Positions 1,796 through 17,304 of a stretch of DNA of 64,000 bases are shown piece by piece. Position 1 is the first letter of the stretch. Each line of letters opens with the position of its first letter. This DNA is from a virus, in the IMG/VR virus record IMGVR_UViG_3300044712_000991, positions 1 through 64,000 of that record; one strand, 5' to 3'. The notes beneath the pieces were generated by a model. That model saw only the letters and a list, made by a program, of their open reading frames with translations. It did no database searches and was not told where the DNA came from. A program made the translations under genes and the position numbers.

Positions 1796-3214
1796 TTAGG
1801 TGATTCCGAGATTGGCCGCGAACTGCGCTATCAGCCCATCTTCCTTGTCCCACAGGAATGCCTCGGCTGCCCGTACATTGTGTGCGTAGCCCTGCATGTC
1901 ATGCCACACATCAGTCGCACTCAGGGAACGCAAGTATCGCACGGTCATCCCCGCATGCTCCTCCGTGCCCACGAGCTCCACTTCCTTCTTGTGGTGAATG
2001 TCCCCCAAGTGCCACTCGCGGTAGACCGTGCGTGCCCACATCTGCGGTTCATCCGTGGCCATCATCTGCATCAACCTCGCTGGCTTGATACCCCGCCCAT
2101 GAGAGAACCCAATGAGACACTTCCCGTACTCGTAATACTTCCTGGACCGCGATGAGTTGTTGACCGTCACATCATCAAACGTCTGAAGTGCGAACTGAAG
2201 CGTTATCCCCAACTGCACCACCCGCTGCTCATCGTGATTCCCCGGCATGATGACGATGTCCACGGGTGCCACCTGCCGTAGGCGATTGATGGCCTTGAGG
2301 ATGAGTTCTGTACCCAACTGCAAGGTCTTCGTCCACCGTGTATCCTCCTGCTGAGGAGTACCCGAGGTGGTGGTACCGAACTTGTTGTCCGTGTTGAAAA
2401 AATCATTGCCCACGGGGAACACGATGCGATCGACCTGCCCATGCCACTTCGCGCTCTGCTGGATGATCTTCTCGATGGCGGACATGAACATCTCCTCCGC
2501 TATCTTGATGTCGAAGTTCGTCCCCGACTCTTCATCCCAAGTGAGCTTCCCGTAGTGCAGGTCGAACAGATCGACCTCCAACAGCAACGGTCGCTCGGTG
2601 AGCAGTTTGCGCTTGATGGGCGTATACTTCAGAGGGTTGTTCTTCAACATCTCCAACAACCCCTCCACGGCCGCTTTGGCTTCCAAATACGCCTTCCGGC
2701 GGACAAGTTTGGCCTTTATCTGCCAGAGCGGGACAGTCTTGTGTTGATCCTCTAGGCGAGCATACCCAGCCTTGGTCACGAACTTGGTGTCATACCGCCG
2801 GAGTTTGGTGTGCGACTCATAGTGGTTGACCTCAAAGCGCTCGACCTCCCACACCTCTGTATCGACCTTCCACTGCGCGAGGAACTCCTCCAACGATGGG
2901 GGTTCCCCCTCATACCCACGGATGACGAAATCCTGGGCATCCTTGGTCTGAGAAATCGTCTCCGCAGGTGCCCCTGGAGCAGGTGGTGCATCTGCGGTAT
3001 CTACCTCGGGCATCGCTCCGTTACGACCATGCTGCACGGAGGATGTCAAATTGTCTGCCTTGCGTATCTTGCTCACCCATCTACGAAGTGAATCGGGGTT
3101 GGTATCCGAGAACCTATCGGGATACAGTTTGAGTACACGACGGGCTATCGCCCCGTTACTCTCATCTTTGTATGACTGCAACACCTTTACCACGAGTTCG
3201 CGGTTGGTTGACAT
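1796..3214 (-). CDS. N-terminal HTH-like region plus calcineurin-like metallophosphoesterase
   Basis: Metal-binding motifs DLHYGK, GNDFF, PGNHD, FSHG and GDIHH. N-terminal helical IARRV...SLRRWVSKIRK segment. Confidence 0.75.
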   Translation of the reverse strand: MSTNRELVVKVLQSYKDESNGAIARRVLKLYPDRFSDTNPDSLRRWVSKIRKADNLTSSVQHGRNGAMPEVDTADAPPAPGAPAETISQTKDAQDFVIRGYEGEPPSLEEFLAQWKVDTEVWEVERFEVNHYESHTKLRRYDTKFVTKAGYARLEDQHKTVPLWQIKAKLVRRKAYLEAKAAVEGLLEMLKNNPLKYTPIKRKLLTERPLLLEVDLFDLHYGKLTWDEESGTNFDIKIAEEMFMSAIEKIIQQSAKWHGQVDRIVFPVGNDFFNTDNKFGTTTSGTPQQEDTRWTKTLQLGTELILKAINRLRQVAPVDIVIMPGNHDEQRVVQLGITLQFALQTFDDVTVNNSSRSRKYYEYGKCLIGFSHGRGIKPARLMQMMATDEPQMWARTVYREWHLGDIHHKKEVELVGTEEHAGMTVRYLRSLSATDVWHDMQGYAHNVRAAEAFLWDKEDGLIAQFAANLGIT

Positions 3215-3241: not shown

Positions 3242-5305
3242 CTAGATGCCCACTGCTTTGTCTATGGTTTGCTGTTCTACTGTCGGATGTTCTGTCATGA
3301 GAATTCTGTTCTGATCGAAGAGCCCTGTGTCCTCCACGCTCGCCGTGCTCAGCATCTCACTCGCGAGTGCCTCTAGGGATGGACTCTGCTTCGCGGAAAG
3401 CGTAGGGGGCGCTCCTGGGGGAGCCCCTGCCGCGGCACCACCCGCAGGTGGACCACCTGCCCCAATCGGAGCTCCTGGAGCCCCAAGACCCGCACCTGCG
3501 AGGTCTCCACCGCCACCACCCATATCACCCCCACCTGGCGGGAGAGCATCCATCGGACCGATGTCCATACCTGCCCCACCATCGAACTCACCCGTGGGAG
3601 ACCCACCTGGCTTCTTGGGCTCTGCCCATGGAGCGAGACCCTGCCTGATAATCTCGGACTCCCGCTCTTTCCGGCGCTCGATGTCCCTGAAGTACGCCTT
3701 CTCCTGTGCCGTGGGATCGAGGCGTGCGATACGGGCGAGTGTCGCCTCATCAATCAACCACGGTACTTCCTTCCTGAGCCACTTGATCCAGTTCTTGTAG
3801 TTCTCATCGTTCGTGGCACTCATGGCACCCCAGTCGAGTTTGGGGTAGATGTACTCCCTGCGCTGAGCGAGTTCGTTGTTCCGCAGTTCCTCTGACTTCT
3901 TGGTGAAGAACTCCCTGAACTCCTCGTTGTCCTTGTAGTCACGGATGCCCGCGTAGGCCTTCATAAGGTCGCGCCCAGCATCCTTCGCAGAGCCGTAAGC
4001 CTTGCCCCTGTAGTACGAACCAACCACCGGCCGTGCCACACGGTAGAACCCGCACATCTCCGCCACCGTCTTGAACCACCCCACATGCACCATCTGTTCG
4101 ACCTTGAGTTGGAGGTTCAGGTAGCGCTGACGTTGGATTTCGAGGTTCGCATACGCCTGGGCGTACGACCCACCACCGCCCGTCATGAGTTGCTCGTGGA
4201 TACCCATACCAATGAACTTCAGTTTGTACACCCGATCGAACTCGGGACCCACGGGCAGAATCTTGCCCGAAGAGCCGTAGAACTCGACATTGATGCCATA
4301 GTGATAGAAGATGCTGAAGTTCGGGTCCATCTCCCACGCAGCGAACATGTCGCGCAGGGAGTCCAACTCGGATGCCTCGGGAATCCACCCCGTGTTGGGG
4401 TCACCGACCTTCACGATGGTGAGAGGCACGATATGGCGGGTGGCGATAGCAAACTGCGCCTGTTGGAGGCGGTCCTCGTACATGAGAATCTTCAGCAAGC
4501 GCTTGATGAGCGACTTGCCCTTCACTTCGTACGGTGCCTTGTCGTGCGAGAGGATGAACACGTTGTTCGGATGCAACGGAATCTCGTTGTTGTACAGCAC
4601 GTACCGTATGATCTCGGGCGAGAGTTGCTTGTACAGATAGTCGGGGCTCCTCGTTTGCACGATCTTCTTCAGCCCCTCATCGGGGATGAGCTTGACCAAC
4701 GGCTTCTGGTTCAACCAAGTGCTCTCGACCTTCACATAGTCAGGATTGAGAAGCGTGAACTGGTCGAACATGTAGTCCTTCTCATTCCACGCACCGAAGA
4801 AGTAGTCGTTACCGATTGTCCAGTACTCCTTCACCCCATCGGTCAGCGTACGAATGAGGTTGATACGCTCAGCCATCTCCTCGAAATGCTGCTGTACTCC
4901 CGCATCCTCGCACTCACTGAGTTGGAGATTCGCCATCGGGAGTTCCGTATGGATACGCAAGGCCGCACCCACGATGGGGTCGGTGTCTGCGAAGAACCTG
5001 TAGAGACCATGGAGTGTGCGGTCATCCGTAGGGATAGCCAATGTGGAGGATGTGTAGCGGGGGTCGTTGAAAAGTGGTGCGTTCCTGGTCACGTCCAGTG
5101 CAGAATTACCGCGTTTGATAATCCTGTCCGCAACCTTCGTGAACGACACGCTCGATACGGGATGCACGGGATCGACATGCATCGGGGACTGCTGTCCCTG
5201 CATCACCCCCGTGAACTCCGACTCCAGGTTGCTCGTGATGAGCCCCTGTTGCGGGTGCCGACTCCCAACAACCGTGTTACCTACCGTCCGAAGCAGATGT
5301 CCCAT
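3242..5305 (-). CDS. Portal protein
   Basis: 687 aa with portal-like segments (DPIVGAALRIHTELP; IVPLTIVKVGD; YANLEIQRQRY...WFK) and a Gly/Pro-rich tail. Lies between head genes and the protease. Confidence 0.7.
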   Translation of the reverse strand: MGHLLRTVGNTVVGSRHPQQGLITSNLESEFTGVMQGQQSPMHVDPVHPVSSVSFTKVADRIIKRGNSALDVTRNAPLFNDPRYTSSTLAIPTDDRTLHGLYRFFADTDPIVGAALRIHTELPMANLQLSECEDAGVQQHFEEMAERINLIRTLTDGVKEYWTIGNDYFFGAWNEKDYMFDQFTLLNPDYVKVESTWLNQKPLVKLIPDEGLKKIVQTRSPDYLYKQLSPEIIRYVLYNNEIPLHPNNVFILSHDKAPYEVKGKSLIKRLLKILMYEDRLQQAQFAIATRHIVPLTIVKVGDPNTGWIPEASELDSLRDMFAAWEMDPNFSIFYHYGINVEFYGSSGKILPVGPEFDRVYKLKFIGMGIHEQLMTGGGGSYAQAYANLEIQRQRYLNLQLKVEQMVHVGWFKTVAEMCGFYRVARPVVGSYYRGKAYGSAKDAGRDLMKAYAGIRDYKDNEEFREFFTKKSEELRNNELAQRREYIYPKLDWGAMSATNDENYKNWIKWLRKEVPWLIDEATLARIARLDPTAQEKAYFRDIERRKERESEIIRQGLAPWAEPKKPGGSPTGEFDGGAGMDIGPMDALPPGGGDMGGGGGDLAGAGLGAPGAPIGAGGPPAGGAAAGAPPGAPPTLSAKQSPSLEALASEMLSTASVEDTGLFDQNRILMTEHPTVEQQTIDKAVGI
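3400..3620 (-). repeat. Gly/Pro/Ala low-complexity tail of the portal
   Basis: PPGGGDMGGGGGDLAGAGLGAPGAPIGAGGPPAGGAAAGAPPGAPP in the translation. Confidence 0.8.
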
Positions 5306-5317
5306 AGTGTCCTCTTA

Positions 5318-6679
5318 CTAGTGTGATGGCGCACGATAACGATAATCCTCACGCGCCTCATGGTTGACGATGGCATCGGGCTTCGTACTCTCTGCGAACG
5401 TAAGTGCCTGGAGCACCCCTTGATGCACAAGAATCATGTTCGGTTTGTGTAGTTCGGGATTCACTGGCTCCTCGGCACCAACCAAGGATGCGAAGGGCGT
5501 GAGAGGCCGGTTGGTCTCAGGGCGATCGGGCGAACTATGCAGGTCTGTCTCAAAGTACTGTCTTTCCAAGTCCTTGCGTGTCGATGATGGTTCCTCAAGT
5601 TCATCCTGTCCCTTCGGGTCTTTCGGACTCACATCCATTGTGCCCATGTACCCCGGGTACTGCTCAGCGTGCGGGAGATCGGCAGCCTGTGCAATCAGTG
5701 GAAGCGCAGCAAGTATCCTGTCGGGTGCAACCTGATAATACACGGCGATCTCCTGTCCTACCTTCTGTACATCAGATGTCCCAAGCCTACTTGCAACCTC
5801 CTGGGCCATCGCGTACAACTGCTGGTCCTCAAACCCCATGGAGGACACTGCGAGCCCACCCTTGTTTGGGTTCTGCTCCCGCAGTTTGTCACTCACCCCT
5901 GGCGTGACCTTCGACTCATCGAGGAAGTTCTCCTTCTGCGGCTCGAAAGGCTCACCCCACAAATGATCCCGACCGTTCTCAATCTCGTGGTGGTCGTTGA
6001 TGTTCCACATATCCGCCAAGTTCTTCGAACTCCCACCAATACCCCCATCTATGTCCGACTTGTCCGTGTACGTCTCGGGGGTGGCAAACTTCAACGCGCT
6101 CGTCGTGGGTTGTGGTGCGTTTTTGAAGTACTGCACGGTCGATGGTAGTGGGTGCTCTTCCTTAGCGTTCTGAAACAGATTCTCCCACCCCACGAACTTC
6201 TTCCTCGACAGGACATCCACCAAGCCCCTGTCGTTCACGCTTTGTAGAATCTCCGCATCATCATCAATGAACAGCGTGTGTCCCTCTGGGCGGGCGTACT
6301 CTCCCTTGTCAATCCCAGGTTTGATGACTACAATGTACGTAAAAAATCTGAGAAGGTCAAATTTACCTAGGAGCATCTTCGCTGGTTGGGCCTCGTCCAC
6401 CACTCCAGGCTTCGCACTACGACTGACCACCCCGAGGTTCATCCCATACTCATCGAGGCAGTCGAGAACATCGCGCACATTCGGCTGAAGTTTGCAGACA
6501 TTCCCTCGTAGATCACTCACCACATTCTCGTCCACGAGTTCGAATGGGGGCACCATCTCCAACGCAGGGATGCCTGTCCCCCGTGCATCGAAACAATCCC
6601 ATATCGTCCTGTCGAGGTCGAAGAGAATGGTCTCGTACGCATCGAACAGAGAGTTCTTGATGTCATATCTTATCTTCAT
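5318..6679 (-). CDS. HAD-superfamily (MDP-1-like, subfamily IIIC) phosphatase fused to an acidic C-terminal region
   Basis: Motifs FDLDRTIWD (I), VVSRS (II) and LFIDDD (IV). Start moved to 6679 (ATGA overlap with the upstream stop). SALKFA lies at the domain junction. Confidence 0.75.
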   Translation of the reverse strand: MKIRYDIKNSLFDAYETILFDLDRTIWDCFDARGTGIPALEMVPPFELVDENVVSDLRGNVCKLQPNVRDVLDCLDEYGMNLGVVSRSAKPGVVDEAQPAKMLLGKFDLLRFFTYIVVIKPGIDKGEYARPEGHTLFIDDDAEILQSVNDRGLVDVLSRKKFVGWENLFQNAKEEHPLPSTVQYFKNAPQPTTSALKFATPETYTDKSDIDGGIGGSSKNLADMWNINDHHEIENGRDHLWGEPFEPQKENFLDESKVTPGVSDKLREQNPNKGGLAVSSMGFEDQQLYAMAQEVASRLGTSDVQKVGQEIAVYYQVAPDRILAALPLIAQAADLPHAEQYPGYMGTMDVSPKDPKGQDELEEPSSTRKDLERQYFETDLHSSPDRPETNRPLTPFASLVGAEEPVNPELHKPNMILVHQGVLQALTFAESTKPDAIVNHEAREDYRYRAPSH

Positions 6680-9600
6680 ACGATGCCCATACGTTGTGCC
6701 CACTCCCACTCGGCTTGAAGTTTGGCCGTTATCTCGCTGTCGGACATGTTCTTGAACTCAGAAGCACTCCGAATACCTTTAAGTGCCGAGGTCTTAAACC
6801 TTGTAAAATCAAAGGTTGCGATGCTTGTTTGAAGGTTGACATGATTCGATGGCTCGAAACTCACCATCTGCTTGTCCTTCTTGTGAGGGTCGGGGAGGTT
6901 CAGATCGGTGTAGAATCCGCCCTTCATGTCCGAGTTTGAGGTATCTGTCGGTGATCCCCCACCCCCTGGACCCCCTCCCACGGGGGCCGCTTCTCCATGT
7001 GCTGGCTCGTACTGAAACCAATCGTTACGCTGTCCTAGCCCAGGCGGGGTGCCCTGGGTGAACTCTTGGTCTACGGCCGCAAAACGGAGAGTCTTGGGGA
7101 GATCAACGACCGTCACATACATCTGGTCACTCTCCGCGATGACTCTCCTACGCTGCTTCCAGTTCTCGATATTCCCGAGGCGTTTGTGCGCGAGTCCCCA
7201 AATGTAATCCACATCGGGGATACCGTACGGTACATCGAGCAACCTCGATCCCACCCGACCACGGAAGGGCTTCTCGATGAACACACTCACGCCCTCCACC
7301 CCCTTCTTACCCGCGTACTTCGACAGGTCTTCAAAGACTTGCACGCCAGGAATGCTCGCGATGACCGAAGGCATGTCCCGCCGACCAAGCAGGTACGCCC
7401 CCACAGTCCTCCCATCCGCCGTGGTGACCTTCCGGCACAAATCCCAGTCCACTATGCGGTCGTAGTACTCCGCAGGGGGTGCTTGTGAGGATACGGCGGA
7501 GAACACATCCGCCCGCAAGGACAGCACATGCTGCCTGTCCTCCACCTGTACGGGCTCAATCAAAAGCGACCCGTTCGCGAGCGCCACAAGGGTCTCGAAG
7601 CGCAACGTAGCGAGCGTCGATATCTCGTGCAGTCTGCGACGAATACGCTCCTTCTCCTCGGGAGTCTGTGCGTTCTTCATCTTATCCAACAGGCGGTCTA
7701 TCTCCTCCTGTACGAGTCCCCGCTGCTCATGTTCGCCTGGTGGGGCAAACTGAATTGTGGGCTCCGCAGGTTTCTCGGTCTCCGCGAGGTCTCCCTGTGG
7801 GGGTTCCTCAGGAAGTTCTCCACCATCTGGGCCTATACCCATGCCTTCCCCTGTATCGGGAGGATTGACAATCTGCTGATACCTGTCCTCGTCCGCAGAG
7901 GGTGGTACGTACCCCGTGAGCGTAACATCACCGTACCCCCTATCGATGAGCATCCTACGGACAGAGGCAAGGAACTGGTCTTTCATCGGGGAGCCCTTGA
8001 TGGCTGGTGGCAGGGTGTTGATTACCCAATCTTGATACCAATCGCGCCCGAGTTCTTCCTTGCCCACCGATCCACCCTGAATCTGGGTGTTGCCGTGGAT
8101 GTAGTACTTGATGTCATCCTCAGCCTTCTTGATCCAATGGAGCCAGTCGAACTGCGGGGAGGCTATGGTGTACCCGTACTCCTCCCCGAGGAAGGTCTTG
8201 AGTTCCTGCTCATGCTCAGGCGTACGATCTACATGGTACTCCGCGAAGAATGAGTCGTACGCAAACTGCGCCAGTTGTTCATCCGTGACATACGCCTCGT
8301 AGGGCGCAAAGCGTTCATCCGCACGATTGTGCTCAATGACCCACTCCACATGATGCTTCATATTCTTGAACCCATCGGGGGTGATGGTCGCGAACTTCAG
8401 GAACGGCATGAGAGCCCCAAGCAACCCACCTGTCTTCCCTTCGTTACCTGCCTGCTTCTTCACAGGTATGACATAGAACTCCGAGGCCTTGCGGTCGTAG
8501 TTCGACTTCGGGTCGAGTGTGATGGACACCCCGACGTTCTTGCGCTGACCCCCGAAGACCTTCGCTGGACGGTCGTAGGCCATGCTCCAGTTCGCCTGCT
8601 TACCTGGTTGCTCAATAGAACTGAACCCCCTCGTCTTTATCTCCACCTCTTCATGTGGTGGCATCCACACCTCATCCACCCCTGCCCGCGCTGCCTGCTC
8701 AAGGATGGTGTTCAGCAGATTCTCCGGCCAATGACGATAATACTGCCGGAAGATTGCGGTCTGCTCCGCACTCAAGTGATCGTTACCCTTTTGGTACGCA
8801 TCACTCTGCATCTCACTGATGTACCACACATACTTCGAGACCACGGTACCTGTCGCGGGGTCGTTGGTCTCGTAAGACAGCGGGGTGATACGGGAGAATG
8901 CAATAGAGTCGGCCAAGTGGGTTCCCCCAGTGTCGATGGCTGTCTTCGTTGGTCCGACCACCTTTGCTGGCATCTTACCGTAATCAGGCGTAATAGCAAT
9001 ACCGAACTGCACGCCAGCACCCGCCACATGGTTCTTGGTGTTCACAAGATTACTCATATACGACGACACTGGCACGGAAGAATACGGCCGGATGGGTGCC
9101 ACGGCGGAATTCAGATGGAAGTTGTTCAATGCCCCAACCAACTGATGATACACATTGAATAACTCCTTATCCGACACCTGCTCTCCCAACAAACCCATGA
9201 GTTCCGCATACCCTCCCTCAGGATCAAGGCCGAGAGATTTCAGACTCTCTACTGTGGGGGGAGCATCCCCGTAGGTTGTCTGATACTTCGCCACCAACGA
9301 CTCCACAGTAGGCTTCGCAGGGGGAGGGGTCTTCTGCTGACGTGCATCCCCCTCTCCGTGCTGAACAGTCTTACCCGTCAGCCCCCGGAATCTTCCGAAC
9401 AACGTCTGGATATCAGCGGTACTCAGTTTGCCCGTGAACGCCTTCGCCTTGTTCATCTTGGCGAACCACTGCATAGGATCGGGAATGGCAGGACCCGCTG
9501 AAGCAAGAAACTGTGGCACCTCGGCTTCGTTGGCTACCCACGCTTGCAACTGCTGTACCTGCTCATCCGTGACACCCTGGGGCGTTTGGGATGGGGATGC

Positions 9601-11331
9601 TCCGAACTTCAGGCTCGCAAGAACATTCTTTCGCTGAAGATACTCTCGGATGATCCTCCCAGCCGCACGCGCACTCAGTTCATCCTCTGGGGAGCGCACA
9701 ACATTCGAGTGCCCAAACATCGCGGGCGTCATGGCCACGATGTCCTTGATGCGAGTAGGCTCCTGCCTGACTTTACGCATCACAAAGTTCTTGGGTATAC
9801 CAGAGTTCGACTTGAGAGAAAACTTCGACCCCTCGTCGGAGATACCCACAACATCCGTGAAGTCTGCGCCCGCGAGTACGTTCTTCTCAAATGTGGTGCC
9901 CACGAGACTCACGCCCGTCATATTCGCGTTCGCAAAGTTACAGTTCCTCACCGTCTGTCCAGTGAACTTTGCACCCGCAAGATTGGCTCCCGAGAAGTTG
10001 ACCCCCACAATGCTCACCCGAGCACTGAACCCGAGGTTCAACCCCTGAAGATTCTTGTTACTGTAGTCCGCCCCCTCCGCAAACAACATCTCCACCACCG
10101 CCTTCAGCAGATGATTGTCCTCAGTATTAACAAACGTGTTGAACGGTTCGACATTGCCGGCCTTCAGCGTACCATCCAAAGCGGGTGCGATGGTCTCCTT
10201 GGGCGTGTGGGGCAAAAACACGAGCGAACTTGGTGGTATGGCGCTCATCATCACCTGCTCAACGCCGAGTGCTATAGAGTCCGAGTCCCCCACCGTAGCG
10301 GGATACGCAGCACCCACGACATCCGCCACGATATCATCGATCTCACCCTTGGACAACACATGCCCTGGGCGAATGTTGAGCGCTGAGAACGCCCTCTGAA
10401 GTCTCTGTGGCGTGGCTTTACTCTGAAACGTTGTCAGGTATGTGCGCCCCGTGCGAATGTCCTTGATAGAAGGCAACTGTCGTGTGAGAGGTGCCGCGTG
10501 CATAACCATGAACCCAATCTCGTGAGCAAACGCTGCTTCGAGAGAGGTTTGGGGCGGGATGACATCCGATTTCCAGTACGCCTTCATCTTGTCAGGATTG
10601 AAGAACTGCGGGGATGTGATAGGTCCACCCTTGAAGTACTTCCGCGTGTCATTGAAGAACGACCGAAGTTTCGCTGGATCGCTCTCCATACGCTCGTAGA
10701 ACACCTTGTACTCTGGGTGCCGCTGTTTGAAGAACTGGTACATCTCGTTCAGATACTGAAACTGCTCCTCCGACATATCTTCTTTGGTCAGCACGCTCGT
10801 CCGTTCGTTCTTTGCGAACTCCGCCCGTTCTGCCATGTTCTGCGCCGCAGACTTTGCATATGTGGACAGCGCATACTTCTTCCCGTTGGCAGACTGCACA
10901 ATCGCTCCCTGCTCTACAAGTTTCGCAAAGGCCTGCTTGGCTGGTCCGGTGGTGAGCATCTTCTCCACATTCGTCGCCAACACCTGCCCACCCGCCTCCA
11001 CGAACGCCCCGAGAATCCTCTGGTATAGCGGTTGCGTGGGTAACGACAGGTTGTAGTCTGGTGCACCCGTTTGCTCCACATGTTGTGCAATACCAAGACC
11101 GTAGCGCGTCAGGTTGTAATGATCTGGCTGTTCCTGGTAAATCACACCCTCCTGGAACAACTGCACGAGCGCTGCCTTGACATCCCTGGGCGTGAGCCCC
11201 GTGCTCTCCACCAAGTCCTGCACATTCTGAGACATGGGAGCCGTATGAATGGTCATCAAGACCTTGTGTAGGGGATCAGAGGCATTGAATTGCAATGCAC
11301 TGGTCTTCACGGATGAAAATGATATGTTCAT
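6676..11331 (-). CDS. 1551-aa multidomain (polyvalent) probable virion-internal protein: wHTH-like x2, pentapeptide repeats, ExQSD domain, acidic helical region, GNAT-like domain
   Basis: wHTH-like segments (TGLTPRDVKAALVQLFQEGVI...YNLT; AKLVEQGAI...KYALS), pentapeptide repeats, WYISEMQSDAYQ and VFIEKPFRGRVGSRLL. Lies in the head-gene operon. Confidence 0.7.
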   Translation of the reverse strand: MNISFSSVKTSALQFNASDPLHKVLMTIHTAPMSQNVQDLVESTGLTPRDVKAALVQLFQEGVIYQEQPDHYNLTRYGLGIAQHVEQTGAPDYNLSLPTQPLYQRILGAFVEAGGQVLATNVEKMLTTGPAKQAFAKLVEQGAIVQSANGKKYALSTYAKSAAQNMAERAEFAKNERTSVLTKEDMSEEQFQYLNEMYQFFKQRHPEYKVFYERMESDPAKLRSFFNDTRKYFKGGPITSPQFFNPDKMKAYWKSDVIPPQTSLEAAFAHEIGFMVMHAAPLTRQLPSIKDIRTGRTYLTTFQSKATPQRLQRAFSALNIRPGHVLSKGEIDDIVADVVGAAYPATVGDSDSIALGVEQVMMSAIPPSSLVFLPHTPKETIAPALDGTLKAGNVEPFNTFVNTEDNHLLKAVVEMLFAEGADYSNKNLQGLNLGFSARVSIVGVNFSGANLAGAKFTGQTVRNCNFANANMTGVSLVGTTFEKNVLAGADFTDVVGISDEGSKFSLKSNSGIPKNFVMRKVRQEPTRIKDIVAMTPAMFGHSNVVRSPEDELSARAAGRIIREYLQRKNVLASLKFGASPSQTPQGVTDEQVQQLQAWVANEAEVPQFLASAGPAIPDPMQWFAKMNKAKAFTGKLSTADIQTLFGRFRGLTGKTVQHGEGDARQQKTPPPAKPTVESLVAKYQTTYGDAPPTVESLKSLGLDPEGGYAELMGLLGEQVSDKELFNVYHQLVGALNNFHLNSAVAPIRPYSSVPVSSYMSNLVNTKNHVAGAGVQFGIAITPDYGKMPAKVVGPTKTAIDTGGTHLADSIAFSRITPLSYETNDPATGTVVSKYVWYISEMQSDAYQKGNDHLSAEQTAIFRQYYRHWPENLLNTILEQAARAGVDEVWMPPHEEVEIKTRGFSSIEQPGKQANWSMAYDRPAKVFGGQRKNVGVSITLDPKSNYDRKASEFYVIPVKKQAGNEGKTGGLLGALMPFLKFATITPDGFKNMKHHVEWVIEHNRADERFAPYEAYVTDEQLAQFAYDSFFAEYHVDRTPEHEQELKTFLGEEYGYTIASPQFDWLHWIKKAEDDIKYYIHGNTQIQGGSVGKEELGRDWYQDWVINTLPPAIKGSPMKDQFLASVRRMLIDRGYGDVTLTGYVPPSADEDRYQQIVNPPDTGEGMGIGPDGGELPEEPPQGDLAETEKPAEPTIQFAPPGEHEQRGLVQEEIDRLLDKMKNAQTPEEKERIRRRLHEISTLATLRFETLVALANGSLLIEPVQVEDRQHVLSLRADVFSAVSSQAPPAEYYDRIVDWDLCRKVTTADGRTVGAYLLGRRDMPSVIASIPGVQVFEDLSKYAGKKGVEGVSVFIEKPFRGRVGSRLLDVPYGIPDVDYIWGLAHKRLGNIENWKQRRRVIAESDQMYVTVVDLPKTLRFAAVDQEFTQGTPPGLGQRNDWFQYEPAHGEAAPVGGGPGGGGSPTDTSNSDMKGGFYTDLNLPDPHKKDKQMVSFEPSNHVNLQTSIATFDFTRFKTSALKGIRSASEFKNMSDSEITAKLQAEWEWAQRMGIV
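9845..10075 (-). repeat. Pentapeptide repeat array (A-[DN]-[LF]-x-x type)
   Basis: ADYSNKNLQGLNL...VNFSGANLAGAKFTGQTVRNCNFANANMTGVSLVGTTFEKNVLAGADFTD. Confidence 0.85.
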
Positions 11332-11338
11332 AGAGCTC

Positions 11339-11788
11339 CTACGTAAAGATTCGCTTGAGGATGAATACTTGCGAGGCTACCGCAGACAACGGCTGTCCAT
11401 GTGGTGCTCGCGCCGCGACCACAGAGTACTGCGAGGCGGTCAAGAGTTCTTGAACATACTCGTACACATCTCTCTTGACATTTGGGGAGGAAGCAGCTAT
11501 CATCTGGCGCACTTCTTGGAGACCGTGCGCCGTTGGTTGCTCACATAGTTGGGCAATCTTGTAGCAGAGTATACTAAGGGGAATGGACGAATAACGGTTG
11601 GACACATCCGAGTCATGACCCTTCTCATTGTTGACTTCCGTCCTATCCGTAAGCGGATCACCGCGTTTGGGATTCGTCCGGCGAACTTCCTTGTCCGTGA
11701 ACGGCTGTTGAAAGTTCATGTCCTCGGGAGCCCTCTCTTGGGGGAGAGGGTCGAAGTATGTGGTGTTTGCCTGTATTCGGATGCCCAT
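11339..11788 (-). CDS. Hypothetical protein (probable virion-associated)
   Basis: Start refined to MGIRIQANT at 11788 (RBS CACGAGG). First gene after a CTACCTAT motif. Confidence 0.65.
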   Translation of the reverse strand: MGIRIQANTTYFDPLPQERAPEDMNFQQPFTDKEVRRTNPKRGDPLTDRTEVNNEKGHDSDVSNRYSSIPLSILCYKIAQLCEQPTAHGLQEVRQMIAASSPNVKRDVYEYVQELLTASQYSVVAARAPHGQPLSAVASQVFILKRIFT

Positions 11789-11837
11789 AGTTTCCTCGTG
11801 ACCTACACAAAAGATAGTGCAAATACTGCGGTTTTGT

Positions 11838-11845
11838 ATAGGTAG
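11838..11845 (-). promoter_or_regulatory. Candidate late-promoter motif CTACCTAT (copy 2)
   Basis: Plus strand ATAGGTAG in the intergenic gap upstream of the operon that runs to the portal and protease. Confidence 0.5.
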
Positions 11846-11855
11846 AGGACAAAAA

Positions 11856-12155
11856 CTACGGTGCGATGGGCTCAGCAGGGGGATTTTCCCCCGCAATTAC
11901 ATCGGAAAGGCGTTCCGCAAAGGTGGTGAACGCCGAGCGTTTGATAAAAAATGTCTGTGTGATCTGTAGCCCCACCTTCGCATCCTTCTCCTCCAAATAA
12001 GGAGGTCTAACTTTCGCGGCCTGAATGACAAGGACTTCATCACCATCCGCGAAGGCCGACAAGGTCTCCACACAGCGAGCCTCCTGTTCGGTAAGTACAA
12101 TAAGTGGGGCATCAGAAGAAGAGGTCACAAGTTGCTGCGTCTGCTGAAATTGCAT
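11856..12155 (-). CDS. Hypothetical protein
   Basis: 99-aa ORF with RBS GAGGA, co-oriented with its neighbours. Confidence 0.6.
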   Translation of the reverse strand: MQFQQTQQLVTSSSDAPLIVLTEQEARCVETLSAFADGDEVLVIQAAKVRPPYLEEKDAKVGLQITQTFFIKRSAFTTFAERLSDVIAGENPPAEPIAP

Positions 12156-12162
12156 GCTATCC

Positions 12163-12960
12163 TCAAAAAAGTGAGTAGTACACCCCTACTTGAATTCGAT
12201 CATACCACGGTTGGGACTCGATGAGCATCCTGTTGAACATCTGGTAATTGAAAATCACGAGCCAGTCCTTGAAGCGCAACGCAATCCCAGGAGCCACATA
12301 GTTGCGACTCACATGTCCGCCCGCATAAAACCAACCCACCGGGGTCACCGTTGGGGCTTCCATACGATACAGCACGGGGTACGCGAGACTGTCCAAGGTG
12401 GTGTATCCGATGAGGGTCACCCCGGGTGTATGGGACTCTGTGCGAATCTGGAACAACTGTAGTTCCTTGTTGAACAACAGTTCGGATCGAATATCGAGGG
12501 TGTCCACTACAATCGTCAACCCCCATCTGGCGGTCGAGAGGGGCGTGATATACGCCCGAGTGAACCCCTTGTAGTGTACAGCATCCTGCTGTCCTTGGAA
12601 CTTGACCTCCCGATAAGTACCTATCGTGTCCTGTCCATCCACAAGTACTGTAGTCCCGCCCGTATCCACGGTCACAATCAACACCTCGTACTTGCTGAAG
12701 AGTACCCGATACTCCGATTTCAATTGCGTGAGCGATTGGTTGAGGTTCGCCACACGCAGGGCCATCACCTGTACGGAGTCCAAGGTCTTCGAAAGACTAT
12801 CGCGAAGCGCGGCTTCATTTTGCTGAGTCCGCGCAGAAGACAATTCCATCTCCTCGCGCAATCGCTGATTCGTTTGCCACTGGAAGTATCCCCACGCTCC
12901 CACGGCGATTACCGCGAGGATCAACCAGAAATACACGCTCTGAAGCAGTTTGCTGAACAT
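12163..12960 (-). CDS. Spanin-like envelope protein: N-terminal TM, coiled coil, beta-rich C-terminus ending in Phe
   Basis: TM segment VYFWLILAVIAVGAWGYFQW, then a heptad-rich segment. Ends IQVGVYYSLF. Start 12960 with RBS AAGAGG. Directly downstream of the SLT gene. Confidence 0.55.
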   Translation of the reverse strand: MFSKLLQSVYFWLILAVIAVGAWGYFQWQTNQRLREEMELSSARTQQNEAALRDSLSKTLDSVQVMALRVANLNQSLTQLKSEYRVLFSKYEVLIVTVDTGGTTVLVDGQDTIGTYREVKFQGQQDAVHYKGFTRAYITPLSTARWGLTIVVDTLDIRSELLFNKELQLFQIRTESHTPGVTLIGYTTLDSLAYPVLYRMEAPTVTPVGWFYAGGHVSRNYVAPGIALRFKDWLVIFNYQMFNRMLIESQPWYDRIQVGVYYSLF

Positions 12961-15347: not shown

Positions 15348-15376
15348 AATATACGTAATTGATTGTTCAAAGTCAA
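15348..15376 (-). promoter_or_regulatory. Sigma70-type promoter TTGACT-17-TATATT
   Basis: Minus strand TTGACT ttgaacaatcaattacg TATATT. The -35 overlaps the TerL stop codon. Confidence 0.75.
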
Positions 15377-17304
15377 GTCCTATGCCCTCGAATCCTATCC
15401 ATGGGCACCCCCGACCGAGTACCTCCCGTACCACCAAATGTGGCCATCCTCGTGCCCCTGTACGCAATGTTACCCCCCTTTACGGGTGTCACCTGTTTGG
15501 GGCGGGTGGTCGGGGCAAGATTCTTCTTCACGCGATCCTCCAAACTCTTGCGAGTCGGAGACATCAAGAGAGACAGGCGGTACACGAGATTCGCCACCAC
15601 ATCCGCAAAGTCGTCATGCTGACACGGGCCACTCGTGGGGTGCGCATAGAAGGTCTTTCCCCCCGAGGTATACCGCTGAAGATACTTCAGTTCTGTGCGC
15701 CAGCGCTCGATGTACCCCGTGGTATCCTCACCGTACATGTGCACCCGCCCAGTCTGGGCGAGTTCGAGGAAGTTGCCGTACATCTCCCCCTTGTACTCAT
15801 TTGTGAAGAACGTCTCTAGCGCGGAGAACCCATGCTTCTGCAAGGTCGAAATGCTCTCAGCGGAGTTCCACTGATCATACACTATCTCAAGGACATAGTT
15901 GCGACCGAGATCGTTCACAAGACTCGTGATGAAATCGATGACCTTCGTAGAATCCACAGGCACCCGATTGTACTTGCCATTGCCTATGGGAACCACTTGG
16001 GCATCCCACCCGTGCATACCATCGACCCAGAAATCGTTCTTACCTATCTCGTAGTGTCCCCACGCTACGGCGTACGTATCGGCCACCTTCTTCTTGGCCT
16101 GTCCACCTGGATCGACCGAGATGACGTACCTAAAGTCCATCTTGTCCGAGTACCGAAGCATCTGTACGGCAGGTATCGGGATGGCGTTGATAACCGCCTC
16201 GGATATGAAGTTCCCCGCCACATTCGCAAAGTGAGCCCCGTACTCCATGTTACTTCCGTAGGGGTCTTTTCGGAACTCCGAATCCAAGTCCTCTCTAGTG
16301 ATAACAGGACTACACTGCCATGTAGACAACTGCATGACCACCAAGTGCGATGGTCGTGCGGCCTCCTCCGGCTTATCCTGCTCTATACCACCCCCCTCGG
16401 AATACAACTGATAGAACTGTCCGCCCTTCTCCCGTGGAGAAGATTCATACAGCACATGCCCATCCTGTTTGAAGTCCTTCACCGAGGGAGACAGCGCCTT
16501 CCACATGGCGTAGTCCGTCTGTTGTGTCTCCTCCCCCAAGAGATTATCCTTCAACGAACTATCAAACTTCGGACGATCGAAGTGCGCAAACTCCGAGAAG
16601 ATAAGAAGCTTGATGGCCTTCCCGCGTTTAGTACTCGCCTTGGTCGTTATGGACTGAATGATAATGGAGCCCTCTAAGGGGAGTTCATGCTCTACTCCCC
16701 GAGGCACCTTCTTGTTTCTCTCCGCAATAATAGCGTTCTGCTCGACATCGTACGGAGTGAAAATACGCATTTCACTCTCGTTGTACTTTGTCCAGTCGAA
16801 GTAGGGCTTGAAGAACTCACACTTCCTGAGTCTGTCCTTCGTAAACTGAAACATGTCTCCTGCCTGCTCACCGCTAACGGCGACGTGTAGAAGACTGATA
16901 GGATGGCGGTCGAGCATACCGTAGTACGCTTGGGGGTCGTACTTACAGATAAGCGAGTACGCCTCATACGCAGCCAGGAAGGACATCAGCGAAGACTTTC
17001 CCGACCGCCTACCATCCACAAGAACCATCTCCCGCACAACCTGCGGGGTGGTGTAGTTGATATCCAACTTCCACTCATCCCGTAGAGTTCTCAGGATATC
17101 CTCCTCCTCGGGAGTGGGAGGGTAATACTGCCAGAGATTGTAGAACGTCTTTATCTGAACACTCTGCCACGGACGAGGGTCAATGCTAAGAAACTGTGGG
17201 CTCGTGATGAACTCAAGAGCGTCCACTTCCGGCATCTGCTTGCTCGCGGGAGGAGCGTTCGGAAATGCTTCCTGCATGTACACATCATATGGGGTGAGGG
17301 ACAT
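15373..17304 (-). CDS. terL: Terminase large subunit
   Basis: Walker A GRRSGKS, Walker B-like LLIFSE and coupling motif ESSP. RNase-H-like nuclease acidic residues in ISVDPG, VYDQWN and HDDFAD. Confidence 0.85.
   Translation of the reverse strand: MSLTPYDVYMQEAFPNAPPASKQMPEVDALEFITSPQFLSIDPRPWQSVQIKTFYNLWQYYPPTPEEEDILRTLRDEWKLDINYTTPQVVREMVLVDGRRSGKSSLMSFLAAYEAYSLICKYDPQAYYGMLDRHPISLLHVAVSGEQAGDMFQFTKDRLRKCEFFKPYFDWTKYNESEMRIFTPYDVEQNAIIAERNKKVPRGVEHELPLEGSIIIQSITTKASTKRGKAIKLLIFSEFAHFDRPKFDSSLKDNLLGEETQQTDYAMWKALSPSVKDFKQDGHVLYESSPREKGGQFYQLYSEGGGIEQDKPEEAARPSHLVVMQLSTWQCSPVITREDLDSEFRKDPYGSNMEYGAHFANVAGNFISEAVINAIPIPAVQMLRYSDKMDFRYVISVDPGGQAKKKVADTYAVAWGHYEIGKNDFWVDGMHGWDAQVVPIGNGKYNRVPVDSTKVIDFITSLVNDLGRNYVLEIVYDQWNSAESISTLQKHGFSALETFFTNEYKGEMYGNFLELAQTGRVHMYGEDTTGYIERWRTELKYLQRYTSGGKTFYAHPTSGPCQHDDFADVVANLVYRLSLLMSPTRKSLEDRVKKNLAPTTRPKQVTPVKGGNIAYRGTRMATFGGTGGTRSGVPMDRIRGHRT

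Follow-up and report, generated by a model that had tools for sequence, protein, structure and literature searches.

A conserved S-x-L-K-F junction motif in head-module polyvalent proteins of an uncultured phage: candidate cleavage sites for a predicted assemblin-fold prohead protease

The window analysed here, the first 64 kb (64,000 nucleotides) of the 194,278-bp virus record IMGVR_UViG_3300044712_000991 from an uncultured phage, encodes beside its portal gene two long proteins, P0001 and P0002, in which a short peptide resembling S-x-L-K-F recurs. What this peptide does is the question that the locus raises. A sequence-only reading of the window had written it as L-[KRQ]-F-[AG], placed it at domain boundaries and proposed that the phage packages polyproteins, which its head protease cuts into separate effector enzymes for ejection into the host. 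We found the motif to be real and conserved, an element at the junctions between modules of head-module polyvalent proteins. Moreover, by analogy with known systems, we consider it moderately probable that P0001 and P0002 are such proteins and are cut into their modules by P0005, the prohead protease predicted in the same gene cluster.

P0001 begins with an N-terminal peptide of 15 residues, followed by a winged-helix-like region with pentapeptide repeats, a helical region with a GNAT-fold domain, a helical/acidic module, an unassigned module and a conserved tail. The pentapeptide repeats matched Pfam PF00805 at residues 463-494, and the winged-helix matches at residues 15-66 were below threshold. 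Translation of both open reading frames (ORFs) was checked, and all motif copies that had been listed were present (Table 1). Two of these seven instances, L-Q-F-N and S-A-L-K-G, fall outside L-[KRQ]-F-[AG], and the conserved form also allows Leu for Phe and Ser for Ala/Gly. The K-T-S-A-L-K-G near the C-terminus is not conserved and was dropped as a site. The module earlier called an ExQSD domain is indeed bounded by motif copies, and a confident GNAT fold was found inside it, at residues 751-962, where all 50 best structural matches were GNATs (best Z 8.9). The label "GNAT-like" had instead been given to residues 1246-1417, for which neither a Pfam match nor a confident model was obtained. 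When single modules were searched against Pfam at E-values up to 5, no match was found for P0001 residues 577-980 or 1246-1417 or for the P0002 tail, and a search of the ESM Atlas with residues 577-980 returned solely unnamed viral clusters with scores below 0.9.

No match to P0001 was found by tblastn in 50,697 phage records, and no relative came up when IMG/VR was scanned with the portal. The metagenomic homologues P0006 (1992 residues) and P0007 (1362 residues) showed 27-35% identity, and positional homologues of 1499-2906 residues were fetched via the protease family from the loci L006, L007, L008 and, later, L010. Overall, the homologues are 25-35% identical to P0001 and lie in loci of 28-41% guanine-plus-cytosine (GC) content. 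In alignments of these distant relatives, the motif was found to be conserved at the same boundaries. At the position of site 3 it occurs in all five aligned homologues, 8-25 residues after the last conserved strand of the GNAT module; at that of site 4, where a conserved helix ends, it is present in five of five aligned proteins; and at that of site 5, before the tail module, it is present in the three proteins that have this module, L006 having the variant L-T-F. In the individual alignments, site 5 corresponds to L-T-F-A in L006 and to T-S-L-K-F-S in P0007, and site 2 to S-S-L-K-F in P0006 and to a degenerate S-S-L-A-L in P0007. P0006 and P0007 are without the 15-residue leader of P0001.

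Furthermore, in P0006 and in the L007 protein whole extra modules are inserted between two motif copies at the site 3 boundary. The proposal that the motif marks module boundaries was thus borne out, both by insertions placed exactly between copies and by the boundaries kept among relatives. The consensus in the AT-rich phages is [S/T]-S-L-K-[F/L]-[S/G]-W, often followed by [Q/E]-[I/V]-Q-P-E, and the modules that it bounds in relatives include Fic, InPase, 2',5'-RNA-ligase-like, phosphatase and methyltransferase modules. Neighbouring methyltransferase, phosphatase and InPase proteins contain it as well. Two L008 proteins have the motif at residues 4-8, and in P0007 and one L008 protein it stands 2-6 residues before the C-terminus; propeptide-type sites, or what is left when a gene splits at a linker, would be expected at such extreme termini. 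Few or no copies were found in the distant loci L011-L013, in which the upstream genes are cut off by contig ends.

The frequency of the motif was compared with that in shuffled proteins. In the window ORFs (about 20,700 residues), L-[KR]-F-[AGE]-[AT] occurs six times against 0.25 expected, with five of the six copies in P0001 and P0002, and across the 194-kb genome it occurs nine times against 0.53 expected; this pattern was set after inspection of the sequence. The extra genomic copies are mostly in giant ORFs beyond the head module, across the circular junction. A broad pattern gave just 17 copies in this genome against 6.3 expected. In the loci L004, L005, L006 and L007, [STAG]-L-[KRQN]-[FL]-[SGA] was found 10, 5, 7 and 16 times, respectively, against shuffle means of 0.75, 0.47, 0.56 and 0.73, and no shuffle gave more than 5. 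Since synonymous codons vary among the motif copies, selection appears to act at the peptide level, and a nucleotide-level signal, such as a recoding or recombination site, was rejected on the same ground. A position-specific scoring matrix scan of the portal, the exonuclease-like protein and the protease revealed no further strong sites, the matches from outside the training set falling within the range of the shuffled proteome; the exonuclease-like protein has no convincing motif. The sixth copy in the window belongs to a 66-residue plus-strand ORF (12626-12826), opposite to the surrounding minus-strand genes, which is probably not a gene.

An AlphaFold2 model of P0001 residues 540-1551 was built from five sequences and was poor overall, with a mean predicted local distance difference test (pLDDT) score of 48; its confident regions were about residues 589-956 and about residues 985-1140. 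Sites 2 and 3, the two informative ones, lie in stretches of pLDDT below 50 just outside these regions, site 3 in the linker between two confident domains. To this extent the motifs were placed outside folded cores. Site 4 ends a helix of moderate model confidence, and elsewhere the model was uninformative. A further arrangement of this kind was seen in a 2505-residue ORF of the same genome, where S-S-L-R-F (residues 1173-1177) separates the Pfam domain Fic (1039-1119) from Hist_deacetyl (1210-1468), and T-S-L-K-F (2162-2166) comes just ahead of InPase (2186-2324).

A second recurring linker, approximately [A/S]-S-L-x-T-x-A-E-[G/A]-L-[D/E], was observed in the giant ORFs of 4385, 2505 and 1077 residues (genome 175814-188971, 168268-175785 and 161481-164714; loci L001 and L002). 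About 32 copies are present in the largest of them, between modules of about 100 residues, and T-A-D-I-[I/L]-S stands at the corresponding places in the L006 relative. The upstream half of this linker resembles S-x-L-K-F, and to judge from the sequences the two may be related signals.

P0002 carries an N-terminal phosphatase domain (Pfam Acid_PPase PF12689, 33.7 bits against a cut-off of 27), with D-L-D-R-T, of the DxDxT type, at residues 32-36 as numbered from the GTG at 6709; this phosphatase is 50-54% identical to its orthologues. The ATG at 6679 overlaps the TGA of P0001 as ATGA, and the L006 orthologue starts at the equivalent Met. Because of the overlap with the upstream TGA, the P0002 start is most likely this ATG and not 6709. 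The motif copy that had been taken to divide the HAD phosphatase from its tail is present, and the L004 orthologue has a T-S-S-L-L variant after the phosphatase domain. Three candidate or degenerate sites in the tail have S-S-L-K-F-A, A-G-L-K-F-G and A-L-T-F-A-E as their aligned counterparts in the L006 orthologue. A hydrophilic element of about 30-50 residues, ending in R-P-L-T-P-[F/Y]-[A/G]-[G/S]-L-[K/N]-F, was also noticed in the P0002 tail (window 5474-5560, residues 385-412), in P0008, in P0007 and in L007:14240-18247. In several proteins of the clade that are otherwise unrelated, this element recurs ahead of a motif copy; it may be a propeptide or targeting segment that they have in common.

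The gene read earlier as the prohead protease, P0005, belongs to no Pfam family and has a weak match to phrog_18299, "head maturation protease". No Pfam Peptidase_S77/S78 match was found in the genome at E-values up to 1, suggesting a distinct subfamily. The AlphaFold2 model of P0005 reached a mean pLDDT of 81.8, and its best match among 48,161 chains was T4 gp21 (5jbl_A; Z 9.2, root-mean-square deviation 2.9, 132 of 165 residues), followed by the proteases of varicella-zoster virus (1vzv_A, Z 8.4), human cytomegalovirus (Z 6.0) and Kaposi's sarcoma-associated herpesvirus (Z 5.7). A Foldseek search of the model against PDB gave nothing significant, herpes proteases appearing solely among the weak rows, and the profile of the P0005 family had no match among PDB sequences, including no sequence similarity to gp21. 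His89 and Ser189, the latter in C-S-M-G-T, were invariant across 35 P0005 homologues, and a Cys-rich insertion contributes three Cys residues after Ser189. In the relatives P0073, P0083 and P0087, an intein/LAGLIDADG element is inserted right after C-S-M-G, two residues past Ser189, a placement typical of an active-site position. The family comprises 118 clusters at about 50% identity, and its gene was found after the portal in every locus examined. On the strength of the fold match, the invariant His and Ser, the intein position and the place after the portal, we accept P0005 as a predicted assemblin-fold prohead protease of a distinct subfamily, in agreement with the sequence-only reading. 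The portals L004:15967-19317 and L005:6915-10367 are interrupted by inteins or LAGLIDADG elements as well.

P0001 and P0002 were likewise confirmed to share a tight, co-directional cluster with the terminase, the portal and P0005. The order on the minus strand is terminase, several small ORFs, P0001, P0002, portal, exonuclease-like protein, P0005 and a DUF5661+SET protein, with intergenic gaps of 12-27 nt in this cluster. Terminator-like sites in the region were not commoner than in shuffled sequence.

We propose the following scheme, in which P0001 and P0002 are strings of unrelated modules (DNA-mimic-type pentapeptide repeats, a GNAT fold, a HAD phosphatase and conserved hydrophilic segments) joined by [S/T]-[S/A]-L-[K/R/Q]-[F/L] and a small residue. 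The motif would be the recognition site of the phage's own assemblin-fold protease P0005, which would cut after Phe/Leu, with an aliphatic P3, a variable P2, Phe/Leu at P1 and Ser/Gly/Ala at P1'. The prohead would incorporate the precursors as it assembles, and these would be split into separate modules at maturation; the pieces would be kept as internal or ejected cargo, and the hydrophilic spacers discarded as propeptides. Enzymes of this fold are known to recognise an aliphatic P3, a free P2 and a defining P1. The site cut by T4 gp21 is L/I-x-E, and that of the herpesvirus proteases is V/L-x-A followed by S, with the cut between the last two. The motif was read as an assemblin-type site since L-[K/R/Q/N]-[F/L] followed by [S/G/A] has the same layout as the gp21, herpesvirus and SPN3US sites. 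The boundary motif, the head-gene cluster and the protease fold of the packaged-polyprotein interpretation stood up, and its cutting, capsid entry and ejection remain matters of analogy. We infer cleavage, the cutting enzyme, the scissile bond, encapsidation and ejection from the analogy with T4, with phiKZ/SPN3US and with polyvalent proteins.

The capsid protein may contain a related site. Across more than 100 of its homologues, a nearly universal K-P-G-x-G-[F/Y]-[S/A/G] follows an N-terminal leader of 6 to more than 60 residues; from its sequence, this motif is likely a previously undescribed maturation (propeptide) site. The S-S-L-K-F site of L006 corresponds to S-S-M-G-F in P0002, which forms a bridge between the polyprotein and capsid forms of the motif.

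Several observations weigh against cleavage by P0005. In the AT-rich relatives the motif is part of a conserved stretch of about 12 residues (..S-L-K-[F/L]-[S/G]-W-[Q/E]-[I/V]-Q-P-E), which is longer than most protease sites and suits a binding motif. The protease, the portal and the putative scaffold are without a clear copy, and the capsid motif has only the proposed P1 and P1' in common with the polyprotein motif and lacks its Leu and Lys/Arg. In this genome (Ala) and in L004 (Ser), capsid protein and polyproteins have the same residue after Phe/Leu, and in L010 they differ; with two of the three phages in agreement and L010 not, covariation was not used as support. A distant homologue of the protease is encoded by Bacillus phage G, whose proteins around the portal are without the motif. 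The post-phosphatase site of P0002 is absent at that position in its nearest relative, the L006 orthologue, and for three of the five P0001 sites the model is locally too poor to allow a judgement.

The long conserved stretch would fit a motif that stays uncut and acts as a docking or encapsidation signal, or as a conserved linker element, tethering the modules to the scaffold, the portal, the inner capsid surface or another partner. A binding tag would explain the copies at the extreme termini just as a cut site would, and the capsid protein, scaffold and protease have no canonical copy. We nevertheless consider this explanation unlikely. Known assemblin-type cleavage sites have this layout, with a small residue directly after Phe/Leu and an aliphatic one two positions ahead of Phe/Leu; one tag per polypeptide would suffice, yet up to about 17 copies occur in one protein; and the modules separated by the motif are unrelated enzymes, which are expected to act apart. 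Slightly less probable again is that the motif is cut by some other protease, of the host (Prp-like) or the phage, maybe in the cytoplasm and with no link to the capsid. Prp cuts between Phe and Ala in 80alpha proteins, with the same P1/P1' (PMC5744158), and the disagreement of capsid and polyproteins in L010 would be in keeping with a separate enzyme. However, no Prp (PF04327), S78 or S77 Pfam match was found in the genome, the motif-bearing genes always flank the portal and P0005, and the motif is kept in a clade whose hosts are probably very different because its GC content spans 28-57%. That the motif is the edge strand or helix of a repeated structural domain, recurring by domain duplication, is very improbable. 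Many copies in relatives are followed by a similar W-[Q/E]-[I/V]-Q-P-E, and the second, different linker precedes repeated modules of about 100 residues in the giant ORFs; but the flanking modules in P0001 and the 2505-residue ORF are unrelated folds (pentapeptide, GNAT, helical, Fic, deacetylase, InPase), the sequences past the stretch of about 12 residues are unalike, and the motif lies in low-confidence linkers. Chance, or a compositional artefact of a pattern chosen after inspection, for which the modest excess of the broad pattern in this genome might speak, is effectively refuted by the 10, 5, 7 and 16 copies against about 0.6 expected in independent loci of very different GC content and by the retention of the motif at aligned positions. 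Nup98-type autoproteolysis (H-F-S, cut before the Ser) was rejected because the residue after Phe is often Ala/Gly, which is incapable of acting as a nucleophile.

Table 1. Features of the head module and motif sites, in window coordinates unless marked as genome coordinates
Feature	Position	Strand	Remark
Large terminase subunit	15373-17304	minus	phrog_2, E 9e-17; upstream end of head module
P0001, 1551-residue multi-module protein	6676-11331	minus	
Site 1, S-A-L-Q-F-N, P0001 residues 11-16 (core L-Q-F-N, residues 13-16)	11284-11301	minus	ends 15-residue N-terminal leader
Site 2, L-K-F-G, P0001 residues 574-577	9601-9612	minus	between pentapeptide and GNAT-fold modules
Site 3, L-K-F-A, P0001 residues 978-981	8389-8400	minus	21 residues past last conserved strand (F-Y-V-I-P-V) of GNAT-fold module
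Site 4, L-R-F-E, P0001 residues 1243-1246	7594-7605	minus	end of conserved helix
Site 5, L-R-F-A, P0001 residues 1415-1418	7078-7089	minus	immediately before conserved tail module
S-A-L-K-G-I, P0001 residues 1515-1520	6772-6789	minus	probably not a site; T-T-V-M-S-G in closest homologue
P0002, HAD/acid-phosphatase protein with long tail	5318-6679 (ORF as listed 5318-6709)	minus	
L-K-F-A in P0002	6083-6094	minus	25 residues past end of phosphatase domain
P0002 tail, candidate/degenerate sites	S-S-M-G-F-E 5828-5845; A-S-L-V-G-A 5474-5491; A-L-T-F-A-E 5390-5407	minus	all within 5390-5845
Portal protein	3242-5305	minus	phrog_16240, E 5e-50; 30.6% identity to Bacillus phage G portal
Exonuclease-like protein	1796-3214	minus	phrog_704, E 3e-67; between portal and P0005
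P0005, predicted prohead protease	709-1779	minus	
DUF5661+SET protein	1-692 and genome 193499-194144 (L001:18000-18644)		directly after P0005; spans record ends
Capsid protein	genome 106569-107516 (L009:2570-3517)	minus	phrog_2522

Since the record ends share a 126-nt overlap, the genome is taken to be circular or terminally redundant. The GC content of this part of the window is about 55%. The capsid protein is 39% identical to its counterpart in Bacillus phage G, which, like the portal identity of 30.6%, indicates a distant relationship. The neighbourhood of the two polyproteins showed some variation of its own. The DUF5661 gene carries a SET domain of the lysine methyltransferase type (Pfam E 1.4e-9), a type of enzyme that is unusual in a head module. 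Between portal and protease lies a slot that is occupied by the exonuclease-like gene here and by an RNase_H_2-like one in L006, and is empty in L004, L007 and L010, where the protease directly follows the portal; it resembles a variable insertion point. In L004 (8562-9995) and L005 (943-2142), an S-adenosylmethionine-dependent methyltransferase protein with an internal motif copy is encoded directly upstream of the P0001 homologue, and the counterpart of this position in the window (11339-12526) has small unassigned ORFs only.

Cleavage of P0001 and P0002 by P0005 would have precedents in several known systems. In T4, the capsid targeting sequence of the internal proteins IPI-III and Alt is removed by the prohead protease gp21 (PMC9026906). 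There, as proposed here, the prohead takes up proteins that are non-structural or enzymes, and a protease of assemblin fold cuts them at a short motif whose P3 is aliphatic; the short leader at the N-terminus of P0001 ends in the motif, and gp21 is the best structural match of P0005. Here, however, P1 would be Phe/Leu instead of Glu, the sites are mostly internal and divide several modules of one polypeptide, and P0005 differs from gp21 in its Cys-rich insertion and in sequence. In phiKZ/SPN3US, head and ejection proteins are cut by gp175/gp245 at A/S/G-X-E (PMC10052503, PMC5694885), SPN3US gp245 cutting at A-X-E with Ser preferred at P1' (PMC10052503). These are likewise large phages with repeated copies of one protease motif in many head-internal proteins, and with several cuts per protein, as would be the case here. 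The motif and the lineage are different, the portal and capsid protein being related to those of Bacillus phage G, and the SPN3US cuts mostly remove N-terminal propeptides, whereas the motif described here separates enzyme domains.

In the capsid and scaffolding proteins of the staphylococcal phage 80alpha and in ribosomal protein L27, the host protease Prp cleaves the bond between Phe and Ala (PMC5744158). The similarity would lie in capsid-associated substrates, Phe at P1 and a small residue at P1'. However, Prp is a host cysteine protease that removes only N-terminal leaders of 13-14 residues, the surrounding motif differs, and the phage genome has no Prp gene. Polyvalent proteins of phages and conjugative elements were predicted to be packaged, injected and processed into units (Iyer, Burroughs, Anand, de Souza and Aravind 2017, PMC5512222). 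The units were proposed to be set free by a peptidase embedded in the protein itself, either an MPTase or a C-terminal domain resembling assemblin, and neither a junction motif nor pentapeptide-repeat members were described (PMC5512222). The proteins described here share with them the multi-domain build, the joining of unrelated domains in one chain (pentapeptide repeats and a GNAT fold in P0001), the location among virion genes of portal-terminase phages, with terminase and portal flanking the genes, and, in relatives and giant ORFs, InPase, 2',5'-RNA-ligase/2H-type and Fic-like domains. They differ in that the candidate protease is a separate gene and in that a conserved junction motif marks the boundaries; no embedded peptidase family was found by Pfam in P0001, P0002 or their segments.

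For the family as a whole, we suggest, more tentatively and with the balance falling slightly short of even, a clade of environmental phages of about 170-195 kb whose cleavage code, not described before, would be [S/T]-S-L-K-[F/L] with the cut ahead of a small residue, and would be read by a divergent assemblin-fold protease bearing a Zn ribbon. With such a code, a few giant head-module genes would yield many freely exchangeable enzyme cargos (phosphatase, acetyltransferase, methyltransferase, Fic, deacetylase, pyrophosphatase-like), to be carried in the capsid and delivered along with the DNA. Modules are gained, lost and split off into genes of their own precisely where the motif stands, which hints at the way in which cargo is reshuffled in these phages. 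Should the motif prove to be a cleavage code, the mature products of giant phage proteins, otherwise hard to interpret, could be predicted from sequence by a simple rule, and dozens of unknown cargo modules would be delimited as candidate early-acting, possibly anti-defence, enzymes. Furthermore, specificity would be defined for an uncharacterised branch of the assemblin/gp21 proteases, with Phe/Leu at P1 instead of Glu or Ala, and the processing of polyvalent proteins into units, as put forward by Iyer et al. (2017), would become directly testable.

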